Virus record (IMG/VR): IMGVR_UViG_2698536476_000014 | Strand: one strand, 5' to 3' | Length of the DNA: 4,971 nucleotides | Source of the DNA: a virus | Lineage: Duplodnaviria > Heunggongvirae > Uroviricota > Caudoviricetes | Shown here: positions 891 to 2,392 of the stretch, in pieces | Numbering within the stretch: the stretch's first letter is position 1 | Layout of the letters: each line of letters starts with the position of its first letter | The notes under the pieces: generated by a model | What the model was told of the DNA's origin: nothing | The model's database searches: none | Seen by the model: only the letters and a program-made list of their open reading frames with translations | Translations under genes and position numbers: made by a program

Positions 891-1937
891 TCAGTTATCC
901 TTTAATAACCTATACAGTTTTGTAGGGGTACATCCTGAGGATATTGTTAAGTTCGTAGCACGCCTTTTCCGCCCATCATCGTATAAACGAAAACCAGTAG
1001 TAGACGAATTTTCTGCGTCAAAAACTATAGACAGTATAGCGTCCCCAGACTTTTTTTGCCATTCGCATGTGCCGTTAGTTGGTTTCGTCATCTGTAGACG
1101 CCAGTCAAGAACGCCATCACTTATAGCTGAGAGATCGTTTAGTACATCTAGTACGGATTGATATCTTTCATTTGGATCTACATGAATGCATTTGTTCACT
1201 ATTGTTATTAATTTTTTATGTATATGGGGAGGATACTCTTTTAATGGATAGCAGCCATTAATTATCGACTCTCTGAGTTGTTCAATCGTGCTAAATGCAG
1301 ATCTTTCTCTTTCAAAATTATCATGTCCAACACACATTCTATATATGGTTAATCCTGCCTGATATATGTCATATGTGAAATTATAATCATTTGTTGATAA
1401 AGAAAAATATTCCGGTGGCACATGAAAATGATATCCAAACTCAGGCGCAGCTCTCGATTCCTCATTGACTAACTGAGATAATCCAAAGTCAGATAGCATG
1501 GCCTCATTTCTGTTTGATATCATAATGTTATTAGGTTTTATATCAAAATGCATAAGACCTTTTGAGTGTATATGATAAAGTCCACTTAAAAATTGAATGG
1601 AATACCGTATTATCTCCCTGCTTGTAAGATTATTTTTTTTCATTAATTGGTTTAGCGAACCATTATGATAAAATGGCATGGCTATATAGATATTGCTCTC
1701 ACATTGAGCAGCATACTGAACTTGCACAATATTTGGATGTGCATGTTTATAGAGAAGCCTTGCTTCATTAAAGTAGTCGTCGTGGTTAGTGTTTTCTTTT
1801 TTTTCTATTTCTTTAATCACCAAGTCATGAGCTAGGTGTCTGTCATGAGCCAGATATACTTTTGAAAAACAACCCTGTTCTTCTAGATCACTAATCCATT
1901 CGAATTCTACATCAGCTCTTTTGTATGGAGTTAGCAT
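891..1937 (-). CDS. stk: Eukaryotic-like (Hanks-type) protein kinase, 348 aa, in the lambda rexAB-equivalent position; resembles the prophage stk kinase of Stx phage 933W as I recall it
   Basis: Kinase motifs in the translation: beta3 Lys (LVIKEIEKK), catalytic loop HFDIKPNN, DFG (LSDFGLS), APE-like PPEY, and a degenerate glycine loop (QGCFSKV). There is a roughly 80-aa C-terminal extension. The gene symbol comes from recalled synteny, not a search. Confidence 0.75.
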   Translation of the reverse strand: MLTPYKRADVEFEWISDLEEQGCFSKVYLAHDRHLAHDLVIKEIEKKENTNHDDYFNEARLLYKHAHPNIVQVQYAAQCESNIYIAMPFYHNGSLNQLMKKNNLTSREIIRYSIQFLSGLYHIHSKGLMHFDIKPNNIMISNRNEAMLSDFGLSQLVNEESRAAPEFGYHFHVPPEYFSLSTNDYNFTYDIYQAGLTIYRMCVGHDNFERERSAFSTIEQLRESIINGCYPLKEYPPHIHKKLITIVNKCIHVDPNERYQSVLDVLNDLSAISDGVLDWRLQMTKPTNGTCEWQKKSGDAILSIVFDAENSSTTGFRLYDDGRKRRATNLTISSGCTPTKLYRLLKDN

Positions 1938-2392
1938 CCCCTTACCTCCGCAGATAGTGCAGCCAAAACAGCTTCATTTGTTTCAGTTGTAAAACCAGAA
2001 TTATCGATTCCATTTATATTGCGGTGTGACTTCAATATTTCTTTATACTCGATCTCTGTTAGGTTCAATGATGATTTCATGCCAGATTTTCTAATAGTGT
2101 AATATTTTCTTACATCACTGCTTGAAAATGCTTCTTGAATAACAGCTTCTATATAAAGGCGGTCAATGCTAAGATTATCAGAGTTTGATTCAGTAACGCG
2201 TATGGCAGCTAATTCAACATTATATAAATTAAGAATGTCGAGGATGTTATTTCTCACATACTTTAATTTTTCTGGTGTGTCTAAGGTCGAAGGTATTTTA
2301 ATAACATCAACACATTTGAGTGCAGACTCATTAGTGCAATATACAACAAAAGATGTAACTTTGGGCGCCGCTCTAACACCTAGTATTCTCAT
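1931..2392 (-). CDS. Hypothetical protein, 153 aa, translationally coupled to the kinase
   Basis: Its stop overlaps the kinase start (ATGCTAA, 7-nt overlap). Same AT-rich composition as the kinase. No domain recognised. Confidence 0.6.
   Translation of the reverse strand: MRILGVRAAPKVTSFVVYCTNESALKCVDVIKIPSTLDTPEKLKYVRNNILDILNLYNVELAAIRVTESNSDNLSIDRLYIEAVIQEAFSSSDVRKYYTIRKSGMKSSLNLTEIEYKEILKSHRNINGIDNSGFTTETNEAVLAALSAEVRGC

Follow-up and report, generated by a model that had tools for sequence, protein, structure and literature searches.

Stk of phage 933W is a textbook prophage abortive-infection function that is usually treated as the work of a single gene. Here we describe a 4,971-nucleotide stretch of viral DNA assigned to the Caudoviricetes (IMG/VR record IMGVR_UViG_2698536476_000014; hereafter, the window), which is the immunity region of a 933W-type Shiga toxin (Stx) phage, and focus on L0083, the gene overlapping the start of stk. 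L0083 has the RuvC fold, its former active site has been re-purposed, and it is co-inherited with Stk-family kinases. We hold with moderate confidence that it serves the abortive-infection kinase Stk as a subunit that has no catalytic activity and acts in regulation or sensing, and the "one-gene" Stk defense is probably a three-part system. The L0083 gene, its RuvC-like label in databases, and the role of Stk as an abortive-infection kinase are already known; the finding is one of kinase-based abortive infection with previously unrecognized subunits.

Over positions 700-2900, the window shows 100% identity with phage 933W, with phi24B, and with many Stx1a- and Stx2a-converting phages. The first gene of the putative cassette, L0083 (1931-2392, minus strand), begins with ATG and encodes a 153-amino-acid RuvC-fold protein without the RuvC catalytic tetrad. 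It is followed by stk (891-1937, minus strand), encoding a 348-amino-acid Hanks-type protein kinase in which every catalytic motif is present and residues 262-348 form a C-terminal domain specific to the family, and then by the third gene, L0081 (724-888, minus strand), encoding a 54-amino-acid basic protein belonging to phrog_4063. The minus-strand order is cI, L0084, L0083, stk, and L0081, which the 933W annotation presents as one unit running from promoter pM (PRM) to terminator tM. Both the 933W and phi24B annotations, from pM through tM, place L0083 in the same lysogenic transcription unit as stk.

Linkage of L0083 to Stk kinases

The L0083 family is compact: clustering at 50% leaves 233 representatives, of which 119 fall below 1e-10. 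With few exceptions they are 145-175 amino acids long, and a profile search added no twilight relatives. We scanned one genome per GTDB species with the L0083 family alignment and obtained 34 loci from Gamma-, Beta-, and Alphaproteobacteria, Bacteroidota (Flavobacterium, Sphingobacterium, Pedobacter, and Cytophagales), Bacillota (Clostridium carboxidivorans and Lachnoclostridium), and Acidobacteriota. Every one of them had a Stk homolog downstream on the same strand (phmmer 1e-62 to 1e-133), and in every case the kinase started -8 to +10 nucleotides from the partner's stop. The junctions were ATGnnTAA, ATGA, or TAATG overlaps, or else short gaps (≤ 10 nucleotides) with their own GGAGG.

Searching in the reverse direction with the kinase alignment gave 160 viral and metagenomic loci, 157 of which included upstream DNA. 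A RuvC-like gene was directly upstream of the kinase in 156 of these, and the single exception had a kinase truncated at residue 58. The four most divergent L0083 members (28-34% identity) were all immediately followed by a Pkinase gene of 351-375 amino acids according to independent gene calls. Across loci, the identity of the partner to the window copy correlated with that of the kinase (r = 0.96). No L0083 member paired with another effector was found, the most divergent members included, and there was no natural L0083-kinase fusion among the 120 Stk homologs listed. We also found no other large conserved neighboring gene and no linked phosphatase around the cassette loci. The genomic linkage of L0083 and Stk looks obligate in both directions and across phyla.

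A preliminary description of this DNA, made from its letters alone, held that the gene would be discredited if it were not conserved next to kinase homologs; the partner is kept beside them in all three sets (34/34, 156/157, and 4/4). The same description proposed that co-occurrence be analyzed across prophages. The pairing itself holds, but that scope was too narrow, as the pair is also present in defense and mobile islands of Bacteroidota, Bacillota, and Acidobacteriota.

The kinase side of the pair is well preserved, with Stk keeping every Hanks catalytic motif. Its C-terminal domain has two invariant tryptophans (W279 and W293) and was modeled as a small beta-sheet plus a helix, for which a search with the model returned no informative structural relative.

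A third gene downstream of the kinase

L0081 starts 2 nucleotides after the stk stop and has its own AAGGA. By a loose position criterion, a small open reading frame (ORF) was present past the kinase on the same strand in 190 of 190 loci. We then applied a strict definition, requiring a start -10 to +35 nucleotides from the kinase stop and a length of 40-130 amino acids. Under this definition, 123 of 138 non-redundant loci had the third gene, versus 26% at random positions and 8/123 antisense. Start offsets clustered at -4, -1, and +2, and the encoded proteins had a median length of 55 amino acids (range 44-84). With this small ORF past the kinase included, three coupled genes make up the conserved unit.

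The third-gene proteins are basic (23% lysine plus arginine) and have an N-terminal M-K-K in common. One arginine (R13 in L0081) is kept in 122 of 123, preceded by serine or threonine in 53% and by lysine or arginine in 41%, and a C-terminal aromatic-hydrophobic pair is found in 88%. The peptide is possibly an inhibitor or pseudosubstrate of the kinase, and L0081 is a better inhibitor candidate than L0083.

Fold and former active site of L0083

The AlphaFold2 model of L0083 had a predicted local distance difference test (pLDDT) score of 91.4 and a predicted template modeling score (pTM) of 0.86. Its best BFVD matches were phage RuvC resolvases. A separate structural comparison included Cas9, Cas12, and IscB among its matches. 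Hence, whereas the preliminary description recognized no domain, structure prediction and structural comparison give L0083 an RNase H-like fold with RuvC topology. Nor was the protein uncharacterized, as that description had it, since PHROGs, RefSeq, and phi24B already carry RuvC-like or resolvase labels. Its PHROGs assignment is to phrog_3875, "RuvC-like Holliday junction resolvase" (7.8e-91). Some RefSeq, PGAP, and phi24B records use this name or 'RuvC family protein', and the protein also goes by 'hypothetical protein' or 'resolvase', depending on the record. One JGI homolog is labeled MinE.

Sequence similarity to RuvC is faint in comparison to the structural match. L0083 reaches neither RuvC family score threshold (PF02075; NCBIfam NF000711): the Pfam match (E = 0.042) has 14.2 bits against a cut-off of 22.2 and covers N-terminal residues 3-65 only, and the NCBIfam match has 12.5 bits against a cut-off of 163. 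PDB sequence searches with the single L0083 sequence and with a profile gave no match. Identity was only about 12-17% to RuvC (PDB 4ld0, 6lw3, and 1hjr) and to phage RuvC-like resolvases (lactococcal bIL67, 4ktw). Nevertheless, hhalign against four solved RuvC sequences gave full-length alignments in the same register as the Pfam match, in which I3-L4-G5-V6-R7 of L0083 lies on the RuvC consensus I-L-G-I-D.

The RuvC tetrad consists of D7, E66, D138, and D141 in E. coli, with H143 replacing the third residue in T. thermophilus, and E. coli mutants established that the carboxylates of D7 and E66 are essential. In the hhalign and Pfam registers, the tetrad corresponds to R7, R65, E137, and E140 of L0083. 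We counted residue conservation in 137 unique family members, leaving out gapped sequences at each position. Position 7 was arginine in all 131 ungapped members and position 65 was arginine or lysine in all 133, while position 137, the counterpart of D138, was variable and position 140 was glutamate in 136 of 137. The acidic tetrad is thus absent from the L0083 family. Other positions were conserved too: E68 was present in 133 of 133 members and R78 in 133 of 134, R47, E82, E87, S91, and S92 were invariant, and Y45, Y80, and Y97 were near-invariant. Given that two essential carboxylates have become an invariant arginine and an arginine or lysine, L0083 is no Holliday-junction resolvase. Judged by the residues at the catalytic positions, the "Holliday junction resolvase" label fails its defining test, and the resolvase names are unsupported.

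The gene's context agrees with this conclusion. If L0083 were a genuine resolvase serving phage recombination and adjacent to stk by chance, as its fold and its phrog_3875, RefSeq, and phi24B annotations would have it, we would have to accept a resolvase below both family cut-offs and without the tetrad. This resolvase would also be expressed in lysogens rather than in lytic growth. Its gene would never be placed with ruvAB or the rest of a ruvABC context, with phage recombination genes, or in the nin region, and would always be followed by a kinase gene. The resolvase reading is already contradicted by these observations, and we consider it highly improbable.

A different enzymatic role could be built on the four glutamates E68, E82, E87, and E140, which lie in or near former active-site elements. 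In that scenario, L0083 would be a nuclease effector whose acidic site has been rebuilt and still cleaves nucleic acid, and which is turned on by Stk phosphorylation, the kinase being the sensor or transducer. RuvC-fold nucleases are common as immune effectors, as the Cas9, Cas12, and IscB matches illustrate. However, the essential beta-1 aspartate and beta-4 glutamate are now basic, and such side chains would occupy or repel the metal sites. Moreover, published work ascribes cell killing to the kinase activity of Stk. We judge a nuclease effector to be improbable.

The conserved serines (S91 and S92) and tyrosines (Y45, Y80, and Y97) could be phospho-acceptors. Together with strict co-inheritance and coupling, they are compatible with L0083 being devoted to Stk as its substrate, scaffold, or folding aid and taking no part in sensing, acting downstream once phosphorylated or stabilizing the kinase. 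Nothing specific speaks for such a role, and it leaves unexplained why the whole architecture of RuvC, along with charge at the former active site, was preserved across phyla, making it in our estimation as doubtful as the nuclease.

Junction with stk and selection on L0083

The preliminary description pointed to an overlap between the stop of the 153-amino-acid ORF and the start of the kinase, and this can be read directly from the sequence. The heptamer ATGCTAA at 1931-1937 (minus strand) contains the stk ATG (1937-1935) and the L0083 TAA (1933-1931), such that the two ORFs overlap by 7 nucleotides in different frames. A GGAGG Shine-Dalgarno sequence for stk (1949-1945, minus strand) is located within the last L0083 codons, 7 nucleotides ahead of the stk ATG (GGAGG-TAAGGGG-ATG). 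L0083 itself has a Shine-Dalgarno-like AGGA (2401-2404, minus strand) 8 nucleotides upstream of its ATG, which is a weak consensus match only. From this coupling, stoichiometric co-expression of L0083 and stk can reasonably be expected. The two genes also have a low guanine-cytosine (GC) content in common (about 0.33 for L0083 and 0.32-0.37 for stk, versus 0.44-0.47 for cI and L0084) and therefore form a compositionally distinct AT-rich block, in keeping with what had been described.

Variation among relatives carries a coding signature. The start methionine and an N-terminal M-x-x-x-G-x-R motif are kept throughout the L0083 family. Compared to a relative with 98.7% protein identity, L0083 had 7 synonymous and 2 non-synonymous changes, corresponding to a ratio of non-synonymous to synonymous substitution rates (dN/dS) of 0.08, and relatives at about 85% identity gave 0.05. 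In the same comparisons, stk had a dN/dS of 0.06-0.23. The synonymous-biased variation whose absence would have counted against the gene is therefore present (dN/dS 0.05-0.08). L0083 is under strong purifying selection, and its rate of change is equal to or below that of the kinase. This confirms L0083 as a real gene and more than a chance arrangement. Overall, the preliminary description was right about a genuine coding gene and a dedicated, co-inherited kinase partner, whereas its statements that the protein is uncharacterized and that no domain is recognized in it were not supported.

The junction also raises the question of whether L0083 is an antitoxin-like inhibitor that binds Stk and holds it off in uninfected lysogens, until infection removes or titrates L0083 and frees the toxic kinase. 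Stk has little or no activity before infection (PMC3681748). The gene order and overlap (7 nucleotides here, -8 to +10 in 34/34 loci) resemble those of antitoxin-toxin operons, in which a type II antitoxin gene lies upstream of the toxin gene and overlaps or abuts it, and the pairing is obligate both ways. Typical antitoxins, however, are labile and fast-diverging, and L0083 changes at least as slowly as its kinase. It folds as RuvC in full, keeps an invariant cluster of charged residues where the active site used to be, and has, according to Pfam, no helix-turn-helix (HTH), ribbon-helix-helix, or AbrB-type domain. Rather than combining a DNA-binding domain with a disordered tail, the chain is all RuvC domain and has no segment with pLDDT < 50. 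A classical antitoxin fits poorly because of this slow evolution, the lack of a DNA-binding antitoxin domain, and the invariant charged cluster; furthermore, the conserved basic peptide downstream is a more conventional candidate for inhibitor or pseudosubstrate. We regard the antitoxin-like role as unlikely, although it is compatible with a sensor role and the two are not mutually exclusive.

Expression and published biology

In phi24B, an identical gene is annotated as "res". Riley et al. (2012) detected two phi24B proteins by two-dimensional polyacrylamide gel electrophoresis and matrix-assisted laser desorption/ionization, the genes for which are downstream of cI and have cI-like transcript behavior (PMC3342100). 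Veses-Garcia et al. (2015) identified these two genes as vb_24B_13c and res, and reported that res, stk, and cI were unchanged upon induction in phi24B (PMC4651098). The L0083 equivalent is accordingly a lysogen-restricted protein and transcript in phi24B (PMC3342100, PMC4651098). The stk gene is transcribed together with cI, and in a 933W lysogen Stk aborts infection by HK97, being all but inactive in uninfected cells and switched on by infection (PMC3681748, PMC6356687, PMC3564112, PMC8008677, PMC3430580).

The searchable literature, which does not extend to the primary Stk papers, contained no mention of L0083 or L0081 as part of the Stk system. Exclusion by Stk is reportedly described, by Tyler and Friedman in 2004 and by Friedman and colleagues in 2011, as a single-gene function. 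HK97 gene 41 was reportedly identified, also by Friedman and colleagues in 2011, as the trigger of Stk, but none of our confidence rests on this. In HK97 (NC_002167; record 24175-24780; 4176-4781 of our locus L196), the gene order is Gp40, erf, Gp42, and kil (Gp43), weakly suggesting by gene order and numbering that gp41 is an Erf-like single-strand annealing protein. A text search for gp41 with HK97 and kinase returned nothing relevant in the searchable literature. If both points about gp41 were to hold, a recombinase would activate a module containing a dead resolvase, although no confidence rests on this idea.

Proposed role of L0083

We propose that L0083, stk, and L0081 constitute a compact, mobile cassette of three translationally coupled genes, encoding a RuvC-fold protein, the Hanks-type kinase Stk, and a basic peptide of about 55 amino acids. 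In 933W, the cassette is carried on the repressor (pM/PRM) transcript and expressed in lysogens, where L0083 would bind Stk as a non-catalytic subunit. The RuvC-derived surface of L0083 may recognize an infection cue, such as branched or recombination-type DNA or a phage protein. Recognition of the cue would then gate Stk, with the kinase acting as effector. The Stk-L0083 complex, the sensor role, the direction of control (activator or sensor versus inhibitor), and the ligand are what we infer in this proposal.

A regulatory or sensing role is favored because neither the RuvC architecture as a whole nor the charged cluster of the old active site varies across phyla, with selection no weaker than on the kinase, and because a kinase of this kind needs both silencing and coupling to infection. 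Folds of the RuvC type bind DNA in a structure-specific manner, and this ability can outlast the loss of catalysis, which further favors such a role. Finally, the basic peptide is the more natural inhibitor or pseudosubstrate, leaving recognition to the RuvC-like protein. Among the substrate, regulator, and antitoxin-like roles suggested in the preliminary description, regulator fits best.

Several considerations weigh against a regulatory or sensing role. The invariant E68, E82, and E87, along with E140, may leave room for a non-canonical catalytic site, and the invariant arginines and glutamates could either line a ligand site or do no more than pair with each other in salt bridges inside the protein. 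A physical complex of Stk with L0083 and nucleic-acid binding by L0083 are both steps that we infer. Stk is said to have been studied as a single gene, and if stk alone excludes HK97, then its partner would be modulatory and not essential. The idea of a recombination-DNA cue hangs on two weak links, namely the reported role of gp41 as trigger and the equation of gp41 with Erf by numbering.

A more specific version of the proposal can be offered only tentatively. L0083 might be a pseudo-nuclease that senses branched or annealed DNA intermediates arising from recombination or replication of the invading phage, or the recombinase itself, and thereby activates the eukaryotic-like kinase, with the basic peptide as a built-in pseudosubstrate or inhibitor. 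The whole would then be a widespread three-component immune pathway of bacteria, in which a dead resolvase provides pattern recognition for a kinase. We think it unlikely that all of these details are correct.

Relation to known systems

The comparison to 933W Stk is one of identity, as it concerns the very same locus, with L0083 and stk overlapping inside the pM operon. Staphylococcal Stk2, PD-T4-6, MADS Mad6, BREX PglW, Pf KKP, and HipA-type toxin-antitoxin systems likewise use a Hanks- or HipA-type kinase as immune effector, and HipBA, HipBST, and DS-6 are established examples of a small protein accompanying a kinase toxin. The L0083-stk-L0081 cassette has no linked phosphatase. To our knowledge, none of these kinase-based systems has been described with a partner of RuvC fold or with a basic peptide conserved downstream. 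RexAB of lambda and Hex of 434 occupy the same niche and follow the same logic as lysogen-expressed accessory genes of the PRM transcript that exclude other phages (PMC3564112). In contrast, the proteins and mechanism of the cassette are unrelated to theirs, and it also travels outside lambdoid immunity regions.

PADLOC v2.0 models matched only the kinase (mad6 at 6.7e-50 and PD-T4-6 at 1e-37, through the kinase domain) and L0084 at this locus, with no match for L0083 or L0081 even at E-values up to 1. Neither the searchable literature nor PADLOC contained the family-wide loss of the tetrad, the obligate two-way pairing with Stk across phyla, or the basic peptide completing a three-gene unit. 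In the searchable literature, there was no account of a cross-phylum three-gene unit and nothing relevant on RuvC, kinase, and abortive infection together.

If inheritance of Stk invariably includes a catalytically dead RuvC-fold protein and a basic peptide in Proteobacteria, Bacteroidota, Bacillota, and Acidobacteriota, then a functional unit, and probably its sensing step, has been overlooked. In that case, the name "Holliday junction resolvase" is misleading and is spreading into phage and E. coli annotations, and catalogs of defense systems are without a model for the cassette. The silencing of a bacterial Hanks-type kinase and its triggering by infection would also become testable with three small genes and a few invariant residues. 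Since the cassette is found in Stx-converting prophages of enterohemorrhagic E. coli, it may shape which phages superinfect these pathogens.

Genomic setting

Cassettes are flanked by cI-like or HTH repressors, S24 peptidases, integrases, N-like antiterminators, phage tail genes, and transposases. Other flanking genes are of defense type, including type I and IIG restriction-modification systems, MADS mad2, a TIR protein, a STAND-like kinase, ThiF and ubiquitin-like genes, and ImmA/IrrE. In several unrelated prophages, the cassette comes directly after the repressor gene without a DUF3024 gene in between. This is the distribution expected of a mobile defense cassette, often in the lysogenic-operon slot that is held by rexAB in lambda (PMC3564112). 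Among 5,426 complete E. coli genomes, at least 161 contain the greater part of the window region.

Other features of the window

The lysogenic operon begins with the cI repressor gene (2862-3569, minus strand; Peptidase_S24 and HTH_3), the first gene of the pM (PRM) transcript, for which 933W annotates pM, the operators, and cI. It is closed directly past L0081 by an intrinsic terminator (704-725, minus strand; tM in 933W, tRM in phi24B), detected in a terminator scan as an 8-base-pair stem with 6 GC pairs and a T-rich tail. Internal promoter-like sites in the operon were no more common than in shuffled sequence; one promoter-like site is at 2983-2955 (minus strand). The plus strand of the window carries cro, cII, and a truncated O.

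L0084 (2460-2801, minus strand) is upstream of L0083 in the same operon and matches Pfam DUF3024 (1.2e-30) and the PADLOC candidate PDC-S43 (4.4e-41). We considered it as a member of the cassette and rejected it: L0084 is not part of the system because it is upstream of the L0083-stk pair in only about 15 of 128 non-redundant loci, and its GC content is above that of the cassette. It is missing from most related loci, including prophages in which the repressor gene directly precedes the RuvC-like gene. A perfect 15-nucleotide direct repeat, CCAAACGTCTCTTCA (plus strand), flanks the gene at 2444-2458 and 2815-2829. L0084 looks like an independently inserted gene (moron). The minus-strand RNA between L0084 and L0083 has a possible GC-rich hairpin of 7 base pairs with a GAGA loop at 2417-2434 (GGUCGCA-GAGA-UGCGGCC), which is without a U tract; this region might act in RNA stability or processing, or might contain an internal promoter.

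Inverted repeats of 56 nucleotides with 98% complementarity are present at 1-56 and 4812-4867, the latter running on to 4971, and they adjoin an IS3-family transposase annotation in E. coli genomes. The repeats truncate N, leaving 60 codons (53-235), and cut O within the origin iterons (ORF 4343-4852). Therefore, the immunity region in the window is a remnant bounded by insertion sequences, in which the operon from cI to L0081 is intact despite the flanking truncations. A 19-nucleotide inverted repeat with 95% complementarity (402-420 and 3909-3927) coincides with nutL and nutR as annotated in 933W, and tandem repeats of about 19-20 nucleotides within O (4690-4812) are the annotated origin iterons. 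Both the nut-site repeat and the O iterons are ordinary lambdoid features.

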